From: a virus
IMG/VR virus record: IMGVR_UViG_3300002143_000037
Location: 1 to 57,812 of that record
Length of the DNA stretch: 57,812 bases
Direction: 5' to 3' (one strand)
The notes below the pieces were generated by a model. It was not told the DNA's origin, made no database searches, and was given only the letters and a program-made list of their open reading frames with translations. The position numbers were made by a program, and so were the translations under genes. This document shows positions 2,714-57,812 of this stretch, in pieces (within the stretch, counting starts at the first letter, position 1; every line of letters begins with the position of its first letter).

Positions 2714-3172
2714 ATGGCAATGAACAAGAACATTGACGACGACACACGCAAACGTGCGCTAGCCTTTGTTGAGAAGAACAAGAAGGGCGCTGACGAGAAG
2801 GAATATCGCAGCGATCCCTACAGCAAGATGACAAAGGCTGAGCGTGACTCTCGTGTTGGTTATCCAGACGACTTCCCTCCTGCGTCTACAGACGATGCCA
2901 CTAAGCGTCTTCCTAAGAACAAAGCTCGTGTTGTTAGCAAGAAAGAGCTTGAAGCTTCTGGCCTCAGCCTGCGTGACTTCCTCAACAAAGAGCGTGGCCT
3001 CACACGCCGCAAAGAGCCGATGAGCAAAGAAGAAGCTAAGAAGCAATTGAAGCTGGGTGAGAAGCCATCAGCCAAAGAAGTTGATGATGCTAAGAAGCAG
3101 CTTGGTTTTGCCAAGGGCGGCTATGTCAACTGCGGCGCTTCTATGCCACCTGCACAGAAGGGTAAGAAATGA
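2714..3172 (+). CDS. basic protein, C-terminal AKGG tail (152 aa)
   Basis: ATG 2714 lies 1 nt after the previous stop. The C-terminus GFAKGGYVNCGASMPPAQKGKK parallels the preceding protein. Confidence 0.75.
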   Translation: MAMNKNIDDDTRKRALAFVEKNKKGADEKEYRSDPYSKMTKAERDSRVGYPDDFPPASTDDATKRLPKNKARVVSKKELEASGLSLRDFLNKERGLTRRKEPMSKEEAKKQLKLGEKPSAKEVDDAKKQLGFAKGGYVNCGASMPPAQKGKK

Positions 3173-3471
3173 AGCCGGGTCTGTACAGCAACATTGCTGC
3201 AAAGCGTGAGCGCATTGCCGAAGGCTCTGGTGAGAAGATGCGTAAGGTGGGTAGCAAAGGTGCTCCTACGGCTGAAGCGTTTAAGCAGGCTGCAAAGACT
3301 GCGAAGATGGCTAAGGGTGGTGATGTAGCCAAACAACAAGCCAAGGTTGCTAAAGTGATGGGTGAGTTCAAAGAAGGCTCTCTGCACAGCGGCAAAGGTG
3401 GTAAGGTGGTGAAGTCGCCTAAGCAGGCTATTGCAATTGCTTTGTCTGAAGCTAAGAAGGCTAAGAAGTGA
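3169..3471 (+). CDS. basic protein with AKGG motif (100 aa)
   Basis: ATGA overlap with the previous gene. It carries KMAKGGDV. The C-terminal VMGEFKEGSLHSGKGGKVVKSPKQAIAIALSEAKK resembles a widespread small bacterial/phage domain of unknown function (from memory). Confidence 0.75.
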   Translation: MKPGLYSNIAAKRERIAEGSGEKMRKVGSKGAPTAEAFKQAAKTAKMAKGGDVAKQQAKVAKVMGEFKEGSLHSGKGGKVVKSPKQAIAIALSEAKKAKK

Positions 3472-3503
3472 TAAACAAAGAACCGAAGGTTAGGAGCATT
3501 GGT

Positions 3504-3851
3504 ATGGTGTTGACGGCTGGTTCTGCCAACACTATCTACACCTGCCCTCCAAACTACATTGCTAAGATGGTGTTGTTGTTTGTTTCCAATCACGATATCA
3601 GCGGTGGCGGTGGCGGTGGCGGCGGTAGCGGTAGTACAAAGAAAGTGACTGTTCAATGGAACGATGTCAGTGCTGGTCAGAGCTATTACATTGTTGGTGG
3701 TTATTCATTAACTGCTACAGCGTTTCTCAAACTTGACGGTAGCTATCTTGTCCTCAACCCCGGTGACACTCTCATTGTTACGCCTGAAGCTGGTAGCGCT
3801 ATGGACACTACAGTCACAGTTGAAGAATACTTTGAACCTGCAATGAGATGA
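3504..3851 (+). CDS. hypothetical protein with internal poly-Gly loop (115 aa)
   Basis: AGGAG lies 8 nt upstream of ATG 3504, which I prefer to the listed GTG at 3468. The SGGGGGGGGSGS run is encoded by a GCGGTG-type repeat at 3601..3634. Confidence 0.65.
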   Translation: MVLTAGSANTIYTCPPNYIAKMVLLFVSNHDISGGGGGGGGSGSTKKVTVQWNDVSAGQSYYIVGGYSLTATAFLKLDGSYLVLNPGDTLIVTPEAGSAMDTTVTVEEYFEPAMR

Positions 3852-3854
3852 TAT

Positions 3855-4223
3855 ATGGCTAAAGAACTATCAGAACAACATAAGCGCTTCCTTGAAGTGC
3901 TCTTCACAGACGCTGGTGGCAACATCAGTTCTGCTATGCGTATGGCAGGCTTCTCTGAAGGCTACAGCAGACGCACCCTCACCAACTACCTCAAAGAGGA
4001 AATCATTGAAGCTACACAGCTTTACATTGCTATGGCAGCACCAAAGGCTGCAGTGGCTATGATCAATGCCATTGATGATCCTACAGAGCTTGGTTTGAAA
4101 GAGAAGATGTCAGCCGCTAAAGACTTACTCGACCGTGCTGGTTTGGTGAAGACTGAGAAGGTGCAGGTTGAAAGCACAGGCGGCATTATGGTGTTGCCTG
4201 CTAAGGAGCGCGAGGAAGACTGA
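3855..4223 (+). CDS. terS: terminase small subunit (candidate)
   Basis: N-terminal HTH-like KRFLEVLFTDAGGNISSAMRMAGFSEGY and C-terminal SAAKDLLDRAGLV are typical of phage TerS. It sits just upstream of terL. Confidence 0.65.
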   Translation: MAKELSEQHKRFLEVLFTDAGGNISSAMRMAGFSEGYSRRTLTNYLKEEIIEATQLYIAMAAPKAAVAMINAIDDPTELGLKEKMSAAKDLLDRAGLVKTEKVQVESTGGIMVLPAKEREED

Positions 4224-44368: not shown

Positions 44369-46438
44369 CTATTGTATCACCAGCTTTGCAGCAGCGTCAA
44401 TGTAGTATTGGTAGTCAACGTCTTTCCATGTGAAGTCGTTGATGTCGTTGCATGTCCACATACCGTAGCCTTCACCAATCGATATGCGTCTAGGTTCAGC
44501 CTCGTCCTTCAGCGGCGGCATCACTTTGATGAGAGCACCACCAGCATTGCAGGCATAGAACCTACACATGTTCTGTTGCTGCACCTCAGTGTTATCACCC
44601 ATCACCATAACAAGCTTGCTACTGCGGGGCACTTTCACCCTGAGCATGAAGTCATACTTGTTCTTGTGACCTTTGATGTATACGTCGAGGGGTATGCCGT
44701 GCAGCATTGCAGCTTCAGCAGCCTTCGGTATGACAAGCCCACCCTGATCTTGATGCCAACCAAGTCCTTCGTGTTGATACGCACCCTTGCGCTTCACCTT
44801 ACCATCTGTATACACAGCAATGTAGTTGTTCACATCACGAATAATCATCTTGGAATACTCAGCATACTCAAGCTGCAAACCAACTTGCTTCTGCCATGCG
44901 TCACAGATGTTGTCGTACTCGTCACGCTTGTCACGTGGCATCTTTACAGTGATACCGTCAGTGTTGACCTGCACAATCGACAAGCCTTCAATGTCCATCA
45001 GCTTCTCAGCCAACAGGCACAGACTAAGTTGTCCATTGATGGTGATCGTCATCGTGTACTGAGGGTCATAGAAGGGGCTGTACTTGTTATTGCTATCACC
45101 GTACACACCGTTCAACGCAAGCTTCAGCATGGCGTTCTCAGCGCTGCCCTTGGGGTAGCTCTTACGCTGCTCGTACACATCTTGGTAGATGTCACAGAAC
45201 TTCTCGGACAAATGCTCAGGGAACACACGATTGGCAATGGCAATGTTGGGATACATGGACGCAACGTCAGCGTCGATGACCATGTACTTGTCGTCTTCAC
45301 TGACAATGGTGCTCTCAACAGACCCGTGAATACCACCAGTGCCGAAGTCGAAACGAAAGCCACCGATTGATACGTTCAAGTTGGTAGCAACTTTCCAGTT
45401 CTTCCAATAACTGTACTGCTTCTCACCCTTCTTCTTAGCCTTCAACTCTTCTTCCGATACCCAACCCAATGGATGCAAAGCTTTGAAGCCAGCAACAACA
45501 TCATCGCTTGGTTTGTTGAACCACTTCTGCCGCTTAGTAATCATCTCAGCATAGGCAGCTAAGTCACCGAGGTCGCCCTCTTCAATGTCAGACAACGCAC
45601 CCTTTGTTTCTGTCAAAGACTGTGCAGCAAACCATTCCAACACAAGCTGAAACTCAGGACGCTTGAAGTCGTAGTAGTTGAACAGGCAATCCTTGATGTG
45701 AATGACTGGTCGCTTTGTTTGATTGATGTGACGCTCACCCTTCTTACCAATGCGATAGCAACTCTGCGGCATGTTCTCCTCAAGCTTCATGATGAAGTAG
45801 TCTTTGCCAATCTTTGTATCGTTGTGGTTGAGGAAGTTGCGACCATACTTTGTAGACAACTCTTCACGGAATGTAATTTGTGACAAGCATTCTTTGTAGA
45901 ACAACAATGTCATCTTCACATCGTGCATATTGTATTTTAACAACACATCTATCTGGTCATCGGTCAAGTCAGAGTGAGGGTCGTAGGGCAGGTCAACAAT
46001 GCTGTCGGCTTTCATGTTGAACTCAAGCGCCTTCAACGATGTAGCCCTTGCAGGGTTGTCGAAGTGCATGATCTTGTACAGGTCAACCTGCTGCACATAC
46101 TGCGACTTGTCATGGATGATGTGACCAAACCTGTCGTCACTACCAATGATCGACTGTGCTTTCTTGTATACGCGTGTAGCTACAGCCTTACCTGACACAG
46201 TGAGTGCCTTGTCCGACACAGAGATGAGGTCATGCAACACAGGGTAATCAAAGCCTATGTTGTTGTACCCCACCATCCTATGCTTCTTACGCTTGAGTTC
46301 TCCAAGGAAGCTGAGTAGACCAGCAACCTCGTTCTTTCGGGGTGAGCATTCAAACGCAACAGCATGCGACTCATCAGCACTAATTGCTGAGAACGTGAAC
46401 GCTGTCTTGTAAGTCTCTATGTCCCATATGTAGTCCAT
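44369..46438 (-). CDS. family B DNA polymerase with 3'-5' exonuclease
   Basis: Exo I WDIETY, Exo II NNIGFDYPVL, Exo III YNMHDV. Pol motif A DADVASMYPNI, motif B KLALNGVYG, motif C VNTDGI. Confidence 0.92.
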   Translation of the reverse strand: MDYIWDIETYKTAFTFSAISADESHAVAFECSPRKNEVAGLLSFLGELKRKKHRMVGYNNIGFDYPVLHDLISVSDKALTVSGKAVATRVYKKAQSIIGSDDRFGHIIHDKSQYVQQVDLYKIMHFDNPARATSLKALEFNMKADSIVDLPYDPHSDLTDDQIDVLLKYNMHDVKMTLLFYKECLSQITFREELSTKYGRNFLNHNDTKIGKDYFIMKLEENMPQSCYRIGKKGERHINQTKRPVIHIKDCLFNYYDFKRPEFQLVLEWFAAQSLTETKGALSDIEEGDLGDLAAYAEMITKRQKWFNKPSDDVVAGFKALHPLGWVSEEELKAKKKGEKQYSYWKNWKVATNLNVSIGGFRFDFGTGGIHGSVESTIVSEDDKYMVIDADVASMYPNIAIANRVFPEHLSEKFCDIYQDVYEQRKSYPKGSAENAMLKLALNGVYGDSNNKYSPFYDPQYTMTITINGQLSLCLLAEKLMDIEGLSIVQVNTDGITVKMPRDKRDEYDNICDAWQKQVGLQLEYAEYSKMIIRDVNNYIAVYTDGKVKRKGAYQHEGLGWHQDQGGLVIPKAAEAAMLHGIPLDVYIKGHKNKYDFMLRVKVPRSSKLVMVMGDNTEVQQQNMCRFYACNAGGALIKVMPPLKDEAEPRRISIGEGYGMWTCNDINDFTWKDVDYQYYIDAAAKLVIQ

Positions 46439-46958: not shown

Positions 46959-48572
46959 TCATAATACATCTCCTTCAGGTTCATCTTCAATCTCAAACAT
47001 TCTACCTGTCTCTTTGTTGTAGAGCAAGTTGCATGCTGGACCAGTCTCACCACTCCAACGATTCTTGAGCACACGCACACGGGTGGTGTTGCGTTCGATC
47101 TTGTCTTCAGCCTGACCATTACGTTCAAGACCAATGACCATGTCGCTAAGCTGTGCAATCGAAGCAGACCCCCTGAGTTGGGCAAGGGATGTCACTGCAC
47201 CTTCCTCATGCCCCTTATCGCTTGGTCGTTTCAAATGACTGACAAGTATCAGAGCAATGTTAGTTTCCTGAACAAGCATTCGCAGCTTGGTCATCACTTC
47301 ATCCAAAGCTTTACGCTCATCACCACTTTCCTGACTGGAAATAATAATCGATAAGTGGTCAAGGAAAACATATTGACACGACATGCCTTTGGCAAGGTAA
47401 CGTACACGGTTGACAATGTTTTCAATGCTCGTCGATCCGAAGTGGTCGAAGAGATAGATGCGACCAGTACCAAGCGTACTTTCAAACGCAGCTTTTCTAT
47501 CATCATCACTTATGACAGTTTCTGGTAGATGTAATGGTGCATTAGCAGCCATTGACATCATCGACAATGCTGTCTTACGGACGCTCTCTTCAAGAAACAT
47601 CATGCCCAAATTAGCATCGGTGTTCTTGATCAAGTGCCATGCTAGTTCTCGCAGCACCTGTGACTTACCTAAACCTGAGCCAGCAGTGACAGTAACCAGT
47701 TCTCCCTTACGGATACCACCACTCAAGTTGTTCAATCCACCCCAAGGGTAGAGACAATCAGCCTTCGCGACAGGTTCACTAACCATATCCCACAATGTGC
47801 TACCAGAGACAATACCATCTGGTACAAACTGCTCAGCCCTCCACCAACGGTCTACATACTGTGCTTCTTTGCTTTCGCTAAGCCAGTCACATGCATCTTT
47901 CAAGTCAGGCAAAGGCTTGAACAACTTGCACTTGTTGCCAAACAACTCAGCCACTTCCTTTGCTGCCTTGATACCGGGTTCATCACCATCGAAGTTGACA
48001 ACAATGGTTTCAAAGCTGTTGATGTATTCGTAGTTGGCTTTGCAATCTTTCAAGGCAGAGCCTGCACCGTTACGCACAGACACAACAGGCCACTTGCTAC
48101 CCGTCATTTGGAATGCAGCCAGTGCATCGAACTCACCCTCAGTGATGGTGATGTACTTGCCACCAGAGGGGTAGAGGTTCTGTCCAAACAATGTACCTGT
48201 CGTCCACTTACCTACAGTGGAGAACTTCTTATCTGCCACAGGTCTTACCTTGGCTGCAACAAGCTGACTGTCCTTGTCGTAGTAGGGGAAGTAGAAGTTG
48301 TTGCTCTCACGAACAACACCATACTTCTCCATCGTGCTCTTGGTGATACGGCGCTCACTCACTGAGACTGAGTTGCCGTTGTTGAAAGCTTTGACAAAGC
48401 TCATGTCTGCAATTGGTTCAATCACTTTTGTTTCCTTGATGATGGTGATGTTGTCAGTTGATGGTGTGTGTGTGTTGCAAACAAAGCAGTAGGTGGAGTA
48501 GTCGTCGTTGATGCTGGCCCCATCGCTGGAGCCGCAGTGTTCACAGCTTACATGGGTCTTTATAAACCCCAT
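46959..48572 (-). CDS. bifunctional primase-helicase (T7 gp4-like)
   Basis: Zinc ribbon CEHCGSS...CFVCN. TOPRIM motifs ITEGEFDALAA and NFDGDEPG. DnaB-type Walker A TAGSGLGKS and Walker B YVFLDHLS. Confidence 0.92.
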   Translation of the reverse strand: MGFIKTHVSCEHCGSSDGASINDDYSTYCFVCNTHTPSTDNITIIKETKVIEPIADMSFVKAFNNGNSVSVSERRITKSTMEKYGVVRESNNFYFPYYDKDSQLVAAKVRPVADKKFSTVGKWTTGTLFGQNLYPSGGKYITITEGEFDALAAFQMTGSKWPVVSVRNGAGSALKDCKANYEYINSFETIVVNFDGDEPGIKAAKEVAELFGNKCKLFKPLPDLKDACDWLSESKEAQYVDRWWRAEQFVPDGIVSGSTLWDMVSEPVAKADCLYPWGGLNNLSGGIRKGELVTVTAGSGLGKSQVLRELAWHLIKNTDANLGMMFLEESVRKTALSMMSMAANAPLHLPETVISDDDRKAAFESTLGTGRIYLFDHFGSTSIENIVNRVRYLAKGMSCQYVFLDHLSIIISSQESGDERKALDEVMTKLRMLVQETNIALILVSHLKRPSDKGHEEGAVTSLAQLRGSASIAQLSDMVIGLERNGQAEDKIERNTTRVRVLKNRWSGETGPACNLLYNKETGRMFEIEDEPEGDVL

Positions 48573-55918: not shown

Positions 55919-56089
55919 TCAGAATGGGGTGTTTTGTTGACGTTGACGCGGCATGTATTCGGGGATATGCACTGGCTTTTCAATCAACAAAGCCTTGATT
56001 GTGTCAATTGACAAGCCTGTTTTTTCTGCTATTTGCTCAATCGATAACATGCATTCTTCAAAATAGTAAATGACGTTCTTTTGTGTCAT
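55919..56089 (-). CDS. small helix-turn-helix DNA-binding protein (56 aa), not in the supplied ORF track
   Basis: My own codon-by-codon translation: MTQKNVIYYFEECMLSIEQIAEKTGLSIDTIKALLIEKPVHIPEYMPRQRQQNTPF. AAGGGG SD. LSIEQIAEKTGLSIDTIKALL is a typical HTH. Confidence 0.5.
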   Translation of the reverse strand: MTQKNVIYYFEECMLSIEQIAEKTGLSIDTIKALLIEKPVHIPEYMPRQRQQNTPF

Positions 56090-56161: not shown

Positions 56162-57034
56162 TTAATGCATGGCGATGATGATGGGGACACCTTTTAAGGC
56201 TTGCATGCCGCATGCATGGCCTTTTCCGGTGCAAGTGCCGCATGTGCCGGGGCATGGAAAAGCCTTAATTTTGAAAGCTTCGCGCAAAGCCTTGTTGATT
56301 TCCGGTGTGCCGTGCTCGTTACCCTTTACCTTTTTGCCAATACTGACAGCGATAAATTCGCCCCTTGTAATGGGCAAAGCTTTCACCTTGTTGATTGTCT
56401 CAATCGATGCATTGTGGCCGCCCGATATATTCAGCATGTAATTTGACGGATAAATACCCTTATAAGACAATATTTCCGCGAAGCTTTTGGAATATCCGTA
56501 CACTTTAGCAAGTGGAAAAGCCTTGATTGTGTCAAACCAGAATGCAACATCATTAGCGCTTGAAAAATCACCGTCAACATATAAGCGCACATCATAAGCT
56601 TCGCCCTTGAAAGTATCATTGGCCGCTTGCAAAGCTTGCACAATCGCCCCTTGATTGTGACGTAACAAAAAGGCATTTTGGCATTGACGCATGAAAGCGG
56701 CCGGATATCGCCATGCTCTGAAAGAATAACAAAAATCAAGGCAAGCGCCCGCACCGGGGCAAGTGACACCGGGCAAGCTTGAAAAGGACACAAAAGGCAA
56801 TTTGCTATTGCCATTTAAGGCAAAAACGCTATAAGCGGGTTGCATCGATGTAATGATGCTTTCAAGCTTTGCGAAATTAGCTTGCCATCCTTTTTTGCCC
56901 TTGAATAATGGCGAAGCTTTCAAGGCATGCAAGGCTTTTAAGGTTTCGAAACGTGTGCCGCTTTGCACAATGATGGCGAAGTCTTGCAAAGCCTTGAAAG
57001 TGTGAGCACTAGCGGAAAAGGTCTTAATTTTCAT
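56162..57034 (-). CDS. GP88-like Cys-rich protein (mycobacteriophage gp88 family-like)
   Basis: LPGVTCPGAGACLDFCYS near residue 90 and the C-terminal CPGTCGTCTGKGHAC. The family assignment is from memory of the LP..TCPGA..C...CY pattern. Confidence 0.5.
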   Translation of the reverse strand: MKIKTFSASAHTFKALQDFAIIVQSGTRFETLKALHALKASPLFKGKKGWQANFAKLESIITSMQPAYSVFALNGNSKLPFVSFSSLPGVTCPGAGACLDFCYSFRAWRYPAAFMRQCQNAFLLRHNQGAIVQALQAANDTFKGEAYDVRLYVDGDFSSANDVAFWFDTIKAFPLAKVYGYSKSFAEILSYKGIYPSNYMLNISGGHNASIETINKVKALPITRGEFIAVSIGKKVKGNEHGTPEINKALREAFKIKAFPCPGTCGTCTGKGHACGMQALKGVPIIIAMH

Positions 57035-57063
57035 GGTGTTTACCTAGGGTAAGTTGACGGGGT

Positions 57064-57255
57064 TTAATAAGTGAAGCCGATAAAAACAAGCTTATCGCCC
57101 TTGATCATTATTTCCTTGTTTATGTCGCTTGCATCGATGCATGAATACGCCTTCGAAGCTTTGCAGTATTCGCCCCGGATATATACCGCTTTGCTGTCCG
57201 CTTTGCGCTTGATGTAGTCGCCTTGTTTCACTGATTTGATTGTGACGTTTTGCAT
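57064..57255 (-). CDS. hypothetical protein (63 aa), first gene of the minus arm
   Basis: AAGGA SD 6 nt upstream of the ATG, next to the control region. Confidence 0.55.
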   Translation of the reverse strand: MQNVTIKSVKQGDYIKRKADSKAVYIRGEYCKASKAYSCIDASDINKEIMIKGDKLVFIGFTY

Positions 57256-57360
57256 TTTGTATCCTTAGAGGAAAAGACACCGACAAGATTATCGGCATCA
57301 AAACACATGCAAACACTGTGCCAACTATACATTTTGACGGTTAATAACATGATGTCAACA

Positions 57361-57550
57361 TGCATTGTCATTCGAGAATAATGAAGTTATCCACAAGCAA
57401 AACTGAAAAGTGGTACTTGTTCAAGTTATCCACAAGGTGCATTGTATTTGTGCATTTATGCTCTTTGTTGGTGCATTGTCGCACCATTGCAGGGATGACA
57501 CTGTGTTTTAGTACAGTGGTATTTAGTGGGGCTTTGTAGGGTTGCATTGT
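57361..57550. promoter_or_regulatory. Cluster of TGCATTGT motifs (candidate regulator/iteron sites)
   Basis: TGCATTGT at 57361, 57438, 57472 and 57543. It also occurs in the DTR at 93..100 and inverted (ACAATGCA) at 60..67, in the other non-coding island at 55305, and once in coding sequence at 56408. Confidence 0.55.
57384..57436 (+). promoter_or_regulatory. Two perfect DnaA boxes (TTATCCACA) within a 14-bp direct repeat AAGTTATCCACAAG
   Basis: TTATCCACA at 57387..57395 and 57426..57434, in the same orientation and 39 bp apart, in the non-coding region upstream of the minus-arm genes. Confidence 0.7.
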
Positions 57551-57579
57551 GCATGCATGCTATATGACTTTTTGTTGTA

Positions 57580-57812
57580 GTCCGCCACTGACACACACTA
57601 GATCTAAATGAGAATCATTCTCATTTGGCTACAGTCTAACAATGCATAACCGATATTTGATCAGTTGCAAATGCATTGTAAGTCATTGATTTCATTAGAG
57701 TTTTTCATTGTCGAGTCAAATAGCAAAGCCTATATTGTCTCACCTACCAGAAGAGTGTACTACTTTTGTTTTCTGGGCCGCTAGGCTAGGCTGGCTGGGG
57801 CATGCGTGGGCC
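57580..57812. repeat. Right copy of 233-bp direct terminal repeat
   Basis: Identical to 1..233 (offset 57,579). Confidence 0.95.

Follow-up and report, generated by a model that had tools for sequence, protein, structure and literature searches.

Why does a phage that encodes its own primase-helicase and DNA polymerase carry perfect binding sites for DnaA, the replication initiator of its host, at the head of its early genes? The question arises from IMG/VR virus record IMGVR_UViG_3300002143_000037, a stretch of 57,812 nucleotides that we analysed over its full length (hereafter the window). An earlier reading of this DNA (the original prediction) had noted both the replication enzymes, which are present, and two DnaA boxes in the control region spanning the genome ends, and had offered three roles for the boxes: a DnaA-dependent phage origin, DnaA control of the early promoter, or titration of DnaA. 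Control of the early promoter fits best; the promoter is of the sigma-54 type (-24/-12) with NtrC-like dyads upstream, neither of which the original prediction had recognised. Our answer, to which we assign a probability of roughly 45%, is that host DnaA may co-regulate this presumably enhancer-dependent sigma-54 early promoter; the boxes look less like a replication origin than like an input of host status into the transcription of the early genes.

Two DnaA boxes and a sigma-54 type promoter

The two boxes read TTATCCACA on the plus strand and TGTGGATAA toward the early promoter, and they proved to lie exactly where they had been placed, in the same orientation within a 14-bp direct repeat (AAGTTATCCACAAG) and 39 bp apart from start to start (Table 1). 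Whether scored against TTATCCACA or against the relaxed criterion TTWTNCACA, both are perfect matches. Their distance from the first minus-arm gene, given earlier as about 130-180 bp, is 132-179 bp from the ATG at 57255, and they stand 378-425 bp inside the right genome end. The region does span the ends of the genome, bases 1-233 being identical to 57580-57812. On both strands of the 57.8-kb window TTATCCACA occurs only in these two copies, where chance would supply 0.44 (0.53 after correction for composition), in agreement with the earlier estimate of fewer than one; the number of box pairs expected within 50 bp is ~1.7e-4. One-mismatch boxes are not enriched genome-wide (10, versus 14.9 +/- 3.1 in shuffled sequence), so the box signal is local, and no further copies of AAGTTATCCACAAG with up to three mismatches were found nearby. 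Because the two copies are one duplicated 14-mer and amount to about one independent event within the window alone, the weight of the box evidence rests on the comparison with other genomes.

Along the minus strand, on which the early genes are encoded, the control region passes leftward from the terminal repeat at the right genome end through NtrC-like dyads, the distal box, the proximal box, a decayed third box (TGTTGACATC), a sigma-54 type promoter, a hairpin and a Shine-Dalgarno sequence to the ATG at 57255. The promoter, TGGCACAGTGTTTGCA, is the single perfect match in the window to the 16-nt pattern TGGCAC-N5-TTGCW (0.014 expected); it is correctly oriented, 42 nt upstream of the first early ATG, and from its GG and GC elements a transcription start is predicted at ~57297. 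Upstream of the boxes, the AT-rich stretch of the original prediction was found at the location described, but it reaches only 60-70% A+T in 30-bp windows (genome ~54%) and corresponds to the two NtrC-like dyads. These dyads, chosen by their NtrC likeness, agree with the published NtrC consensus TGCACCAnnnTGGTGCA (PMC8743547) at 10 and 11 of its 14 specified positions. Clustered within them are TGCATTGT words, whose interpretation as a separate iteron family was rejected, the words being part of degenerate NtrC-like dyads and not conserved in relatives. No IHF consensus (WATCAANNNNTTR) was found on either strand of 57256-57580, including the interval between enhancer and promoter. A sigma-70-like match overlapping the same region (TTGACA, 16 nt, CAAAAT) was rejected as the conserved early promoter, its -10 hexamer not being conserved in the related loci L122, L125 and L141.

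Conservation, recurrence and genome setting

Searches of GenBank phage sequences returned no match, either at the nucleotide level with 56800-57812 or by tblastn with the GP88-like protein encoded next to the control region. Relatives were instead obtained from IMG/VR, where 33 loci anchored on the neighbouring GP88-like gene were fetched; counts below are on 32 of them, some of which are near-duplicates of each other. When the window is aligned with L122, L125 and L141, the conserved islands are the dyads, boxes 1, 2 and 3 and the -24/-12 elements, with diverged DNA between them, and the -24/-12 columns are invariant in all four phages. Conservation of the boxes in related genomes, which the original prediction had proposed to check, is borne out: they stand in register in these three loci, and 11 of the 32 have a cluster of 2-9 boxes no more than ~1 kb upstream of the anchor gene. 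L122 has TTATGCACA at both box positions with the same 39-bp spacing, a form that fits TTWTNCACA, the DnaA-box consensus quoted in 10.1101/866236. At the third-box column L122 carries TGTTGATAAC, and L125 and L141 carry a perfect TGTGGATAAC. Over the full length of 22 related contigs we counted 41 perfect boxes versus 5 matches to a reversed control word, and 31 of the 41 fall in the control region. The boxes are thus likely, on this comparative evidence, to be genuine DnaA-type sites under selection, with host DnaA the likely binder.

Promoter and boxes also tend to occur together. Sigma-54-like elements are present in 12 of the 32 loci, nine times with boxes and three times alone, while two loci have boxes alone and 18 have neither (Fisher p = 3e-4). 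At the place of the window's dyads, relatives have three better NtrC-like dyads, likewise 21 bp apart, that match 10-13 of the 14 positions; their pooled consensus, TGCACCATAATAGTGCA, agrees with NtrC at 13 of 14, a figure inflated by the picking of dyads for NtrC likeness. In the window, L122, L125 and L141 the boxes lie between the candidate enhancer and the promoter.

Other relatives fill the same position differently. L126 has a sigma-54-like promoter with different dyads: at ~3450-3650 of that locus, promoter TGGCATAGTAGTTGCA is preceded by three GCGGCAATATTTGCC-type dyads, and DnaA boxes are absent. The type of enhancer appears, from such loci, to be exchangeable between relatives. L123, L129 and L138 carry CTTATATAAG palindromes at the control position, and L133, L152 and MW202701 short tandem repeats. 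Those of MW202701 are ~20 CTACAGC repeats. The L152 contig encodes a primase-helicase 97% identical and a GP88-like protein 91% identical to those of the window, and between its repeat homology and its GP88-like gene (3100-4000) it has ACAGCA-type tandem repeats, a different small gene and no boxes. In L124, L127, L023 and L055, boxes in both orientations surround the palindrome AGTCTTATATAAGAG and NtrC-like dyads are absent; L023 and L055 have a sigma-54 site ~80-110 bp downstream of the boxes. The comparison with L152 and MW202701 indicates that the early control cassette (57035-57579) is swapped as a unit.

The pairing extends well past these relatives. The sole criterion for selecting IMG/VR sequences was a pair of perfect boxes separated by 20-40 bp, and the first 120 such stretches were used. 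Among them were 25 matches to the sigma-54 pattern, versus 3 to its reversed control, and 19 of these 25 fall no farther than 400 bp from a box, a zone that makes up 13.5% of the sequence (p = 2e-12). The ordered composite of TTATCCACA, 8-20 bp and TGGCAC-N5-TTGCW was found in 82 stretches, with a preferred gap of 11 bp (49 of 83 matches), and the same arrangement with TGTGGATAA in 37, with a preferred gap of 15 bp (31 of 37); with the reversed sigma-54 control, TTATCCACA gave a single stretch. The usual layout is a C-rich run, 2-12 boxes, one to six sigma-54 promoters and then genes. The composite loci belong to several sequence families, some of them unrelated and without shared flanking sequence, and one example, L229, encodes a T7-type primase-helicase and polymerase. 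With ~120 IMG/VR stretches against one control, the composite is, by these sequence counts, a general module and not an oddity. In L260, L264, L279 and similar loci, three to six tandem sigma-54 promoters lie just inside the C-rich run, and an 11-bp-phased pair, TGTGGATAAccTGTGGATAAc, sits 4 bp upstream of one promoter (15 bp from its first box).

The window is a complete IMG/VR virus record with a 233-bp end overlap; the database label 'direct terminal repeats' denotes overlapping contig ends and does not imply physical ends. The repeat boundary, at 233/234 and 57812, coincides exactly with a conserved motif in which a C/G run precedes GGCCCACGC (minus-strand reading: GGGGGGT|GGCCCACGC), with GGCCCAC after the run, and which also occurs in L122, L142, L144, L146, L152 and MW202701. 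The coincidence suggests that the boundary is a genuine packaging or terminus signal and not an assembly artefact. Within the repeat, at 57606-57626 (also 27-47), lies a 21-bp palindrome, AAATGAGAATCATTCTCATTT, which many relatives have at the equivalent place (L122, L126, L133, L134, L138, L146, L149 and L152); by eye it resembles the enterobacterial Fur-box consensus, at ~14 of 19 positions.

A plus arm (899-35360) carries the virion protein genes, and a minus arm of ~22 kb, from 57255 down to 35407, carries the early and replication genes, among them those for a GP88-like Cys-rich protein, a tyrosine integrase, a T7-type primase-helicase, a DNA polymerase, an exonuclease, a ribonucleotide reductase and PhoH. 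On the basis of a capsid protein that shares 72-81% identity with its counterparts in Puniceispirillum phage HMO-2011, roseophages CRP-1, CRP-9 and CRP-13 and the uncultured MW202701, the genome is assigned by sequence to the HMO-2011-type podophages. It has no tRNA genes and no Rfam matches, and hints at its host are weak, consisting only of short contigs binned into Polynucleobacter and Pseudomonadales metagenome-assembled genomes. None of the phage-encoded proteins has a DnaA DNA-binding domain (Bac_DnaA_C) or a sigma-54 activator domain (Sigma54_activat), so that both DnaA and the sigma-54 activator would be those of the host. The integrase is not accompanied by an evident repressor. A 56-residue early open reading frame at 55919-56089 on the minus strand has a helix-turn-helix-like segment, its sigma-70 region 4 and helix-turn-helix matches all falling below Pfam thresholds, and is the sole candidate for a phage DNA-binding regulator in the early arm. 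The GP88-like protein (PF17338), with its invariant Cys-rich motifs, is common to phages estimated complete at ~40 kb and to the 58-kb phage of the window, and for this reason the early region seems to move between podophage lineages. With a folding energy of -14.8 kcal/mol (z = -3.8), the stem-loop with which the early transcript is predicted to start is stable, and it is terminator-like by scan. L122 retains it despite base changes on one side of the stem. Its role could be attenuation or protection of the 5' end.

Table 1. Coordinates of the features discussed, listed from the right genome end leftward; negative positions are relative to the predicted early transcription start.
Feature	Position	Strand	Remarks
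Terminal repeat, right copy	57580-57812	.	identical to 1-233
Two NtrC-like 17-bp dyads	57438-57454, 57459-57475	.	21 bp apart; centres about -149 and -170
14-bp direct repeat AAGTTATCCACAAG, two copies	57384-57397, 57423-57436	.	100% identity; box-bearing
Distal DnaA box	57426-57434	-	TTATCCACA on plus strand, TGTGGATAA toward early promoter; about -129 to -137
Proximal DnaA box	57387-57395	-	perfect match; same orientation as distal box; about -90 to -98
Decayed third box TGTTGACATC (minus strand)	57351-57360	-	about -54 to -63
Sigma-70-like match TTGACA, 16 nt, CAAAAT	57331-57358	-	consensus scan, 10/12; rival early promoter
Sigma-54 (RpoN) type promoter TGGCACAGTGTTTGCA	57323-57308	-	TGGCAC-N5-TTGCA; GG -25/-24, GC -13/-12
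10-pair stem-loop	57276-57299	-	predicted 5' end of early transcript; Shine-Dalgarno and ATG 57255 downstream
First early gene, 63 amino acids, no family match	57064-57255	-	open reading frame list; ATG at 57255
Cys-rich GP88-like gene (PF17338)	56162-57034	-	next after first early gene
T7-type primase-helicase	46959-48572		Pfam/PHROG scans
DNA polymerase	44369-46438		Pfam/PHROG scans

Proposed promoter control and its rivals

From the arrangement and conservation of the sites we infer that DnaA, sigma-54 polymerase and an NtrC-like protein bind the control region. Host sigma-54 RNA polymerase would be held at 57323-57308 as a closed complex, and an NtrC-type host activator on the dyads would loop to the promoter and be required for its opening. 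DnaA, bound in the intervening 100 bp, would substitute for the IHF of classical sigma-54 promoters and set the efficiency of looping, making early transcription dependent on the level or nucleotide state of host DnaA as well as on the activator signal. We lean towards an effect of DnaA that helps rather than hinders, because the third box occupies the position usual for IHF in sigma-54 promoters and no IHF site was found.

A bolder form of promoter control, improbable in our judgement, concerns a large group of aquatic podophages that have a T7-type replisome and no RNA polymerase of their own, in which the DnaA-box array inside the genome end would itself be the upstream activating element of one or more sigma-54 early promoters. 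DnaA is an AAA+ protein that melts DNA, and oligomerised host DnaA-ATP would here license or replace the usual enhancer-binding activator. The host replication initiator would then directly switch on early transcription, and perhaps with it a transcription-driven entry of the genome; in the window, the early promoter would be an AND gate combining nitrogen status, through the NtrC-like dyads, with initiation readiness, through DnaA.

Several observations weigh against promoter control by DnaA. The box spacings of 39 bp and 36 bp are out of helical phase, and for that reason the bends introduced by DnaA would not add up. The geometry varies among relatives, which counts against a strict architectural role, since such a role predicts fixed geometry: L137 and L144 have their boxes upstream of the enhancer, L143 has boxes to either side of it, and those of L028 lie downstream of the promoter. 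The dyads of the window are weak (10-11 of 14), and selection by NtrC likeness biases their pooled consensus. Many of the 82 and 37 composite loci fall in a few sequence families, making the counts partly a matter of common ancestry, and the arrays of up to 11-13 boxes in other contigs resemble origin or titration arrays more than operators. The literature searched, whose coverage was incomplete, offered no example of a sigma-54 promoter on which DnaA acts.

The rival that survives best is a replication origin, DnaA-dependent or DnaA-helped, at which box-bound DnaA would open nearby DNA for loading of the T7-type primase-helicase, perhaps with help from transcription that starts at the neighbouring promoter, in the manner of lambda ori or the promoter-linked T7 origins. 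Typical of oriC, and of many plasmid and P1 origins, is a cluster of DnaA boxes in one orientation. The boxes of the window share this layout and occupy the main non-coding region, where the strands switch and cumulative GC skew reaches its minimum. Related and unrelated contigs contain arrays of 6-13 boxes, in which an 11-bp period is frequent, and these look like origin arrays. The T7 origin is primed by T7 RNA polymerase, and the box-carrying contigs share a T7-type replisome without a phage RNA polymerase. The skew minimum does not discriminate, however, because skew follows gene direction and the switch is equally explained by the change in that direction. The DNA itself also lacks origin features: A+T content near the boxes (57360-57470) is at most 70% in any 30-bp window, leaving no unwinding element; neither strand of 57256-57580 has a run of at least three TA(G/A) DnaA-trios or an IHF site; and the phage lacks a DnaB/DnaC-type helicase for DnaA to load.

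Comparison with relatives points the same way. The boxless cassette of L152 occupies the same position in a contig whose primase-helicase is 97% identical, so that boxes at this place are dispensable for a replisome almost the same as that of the window. A scan for TTATNCACA in ten cultured HMO-2011-type phages (HMO-2011, seven CRP roseophages, HTVC115P and HTVC033P) and in MW202701 found scattered single boxes at control frequency and no clusters. Presence of boxes tracks promoter type, not replication genes. Each swapped cassette could bring its own origin, which would soften the comparison with L152. On balance the DnaA-dependent origin of the original prediction did not hold up well, and we consider an origin unlikely and a weaker reading than promoter control.

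We would give small odds to a role in capturing the entering genome end, whereby membrane-associated DnaA would hold or pause the DNA until transcription, as has been suggested for the T5 injection stop. This presupposes that the 233-bp repeat is, as is plausible, a true physical end, and that the promoter-bearing end enters first, as it probably does. Early promoters of T7 lie at a similar spacing from its left end to that seen here, where the boxes are 378-425 bp and the promoter ~490-505 bp from the right end. Many IMG/VR contigs run from a C-run through a box array to one or more sigma-54 promoters, and in the window the C-run abuts the repeat boundary. A precedent exists in T5-like phages, in which ~8 conserved DnaA boxes occupy the non-coding first-step-transfer region and a DnaA-based injection stop has been proposed (10.1101/866236). 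That model is itself a hypothesis, however, and the T5 arrangement of box pairs 3 bp apart in inverted repeats with 52-bp spacers is absent from the window, whose pair of boxes at a 39-bp spacing would anchor the DNA weakly; the IMG/VR repeat label, moreover, shows overlapping contig ends only.

The boxes might also not be DnaA sites at all, the 14-bp repeat being the target of some phage protein or of a host protein other than DnaA, or else a recent duplication that matches the consensus by chance, with the sigma-70-like TTGACA-N16-CAAAAT as the true early promoter. The two copies are one duplicated 14-mer, and the chance of a single box in the 545-bp cassette is ~0.004. At position 5 both boxes of the window have C and both of L122 have G, which could reflect co-evolution with a specific protein; the sigma-70-like match scores 10 of 12; and the small helix-turn-helix-like early reading frame, below Pfam thresholds as it is, would be a candidate binder. 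Against this, many diverged phages have arrays of the exact consensus here, as do viral families that are unrelated and without shared flanks, the L122 variant still matches TTWTNCACA, and it is the sigma-54 -24/-12 elements that are invariant, whereas the sigma-70 -10 hexamer is not conserved. We judge this reading very improbable. An explanation of the box 9-mer as integrase attP arm sites was rejected, since it recurs in unrelated phages and equals the DnaA consensus.

Least probable of all is a DnaA sink, by which the multiplying phage genome would titrate host DnaA, much as the datA locus soaks it up, and so shut off host initiation or re-time phage expression: box number (2 to 9 or more), orientation and position do vary freely among relatives, and the perfect consensus form, the tightest for DnaA binding, dominates, but the window has two perfect boxes only, a sink gives no reason for the fixed 11-bp and 15-bp gaps to the sigma-54 promoter or for the constant location in the early control region, and close relatives do without the box cassette. 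In E. coli, DnaA titration through boxes on the chromosome is an accepted concept (PMC12371093).

Early promoters of phages are usually strong sigma-70 promoters that fire on entry, and a sigma-54 promoter is silent unless a host activator acts. It is unlike this textbook design that the only conserved promoter for a 22-kb early arm should be of the sigma-54 type, with host DnaA sites in its control DNA. If control of this promoter by DnaA is real, a group of abundant aquatic phages would couple infection to both the nutrient status and the replication status of their hosts, which would bear on the timing of productive infection in nutrient-poor waters and on what keeps a phage silent that carries an integrase without a visible repressor.

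Comparison with known systems

The closest likeness is to IHF-assisted sigma-54 promoters such as E. coli glnAp2/glnHp2, those of the nifH type and Pseudomonas Pu. The window shares with them the -24 GG/-12 GC elements at exact spacing, candidate dyad activator sites 100-180 bp upstream that resemble the NtrC consensus TGCACCAnnnTGGTGCA (PMC8743547), and a putative protein-binding segment between enhancer and promoter. Unlike them, it has DnaA boxes and no IHF consensus, and its promoter would drive the early arm of a phage that encodes no activator of its own.

DnaA is also a transcription factor in its own right, at E. coli dnaA, nrdAB and mioC and at lambda pR, where its action includes transcriptional activation of ori-lambda. 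As at these promoters, one to a few consensus boxes lie near the promoter in the window, and lambda offers the example of a phage early promoter that responds to host DnaA although the phage has its own replication proteins. All of these are sigma-70 promoters, however, whereas that of the window is of the sigma-54 type, and the lambda boxes are downstream of pR whereas those of the window are upstream of its promoter, between enhancer and promoter.

Origins of the oriC type and the iteron origins of P1 and plasmids resemble the locus in their clustered, co-oriented consensus boxes, their large non-coding region and the other short repeats adjacent to them. They differ in possessing what the window lacks, namely an A+T-rich unwinding element, DnaA-trios and a gene for a Rep initiator; the window instead has a T7-type replisome, and its relative L152 does without the cassette.

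With T5-like phages (10.1101/866236) the window has in common conserved consensus or near-consensus boxes in non-coding DNA near the first-entering end (in the window the probable one), a phage-encoded replication machinery, and an interpretation of the boxes other than as an origin. T5 itself has ~8 boxes, in pairs 3 bp apart, in inverted repeats with 52-bp spacers, all within a repeat of roughly 10 kb (~9.7 kb in its relative BF23; PMC10644984). The two to three boxes of the window share one orientation at spacings of 36-39 bp, lie directly inward of a 233-bp repeat and go with a sigma-54 promoter.

A tie between a phage programme and host sigma-54 polymerase, predicted from sequence for the window, has a parallel in Pseudomonas phage YuA, whose development is reported to be strictly dependent on host sigma-54 in PMC5053324 (citing Ceyssens et al. 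2008), where phage use of sigma-54 is called rare. The YuA polymerase belongs to the same broad family as that of the window, and Pseudomonas phages are among the polymerase matches, in which YuA is not listed. As a model for the composite YuA was rejected, for its genome contains neither a strict TGGCAY-N5-TWGCW site nor a TTWTNCACA box.

We found no earlier description of a DnaA-box and sigma-54 early cassette in the literature searched, of which coverage was incomplete. Lambda and P1 have DnaA boxes in their control DNA, as does T5 in its injection-stop region. The kinds of component, such boxes on the one hand and phage use of sigma-54 on the other, are therefore already familiar, and it is their composite that appears to be new.

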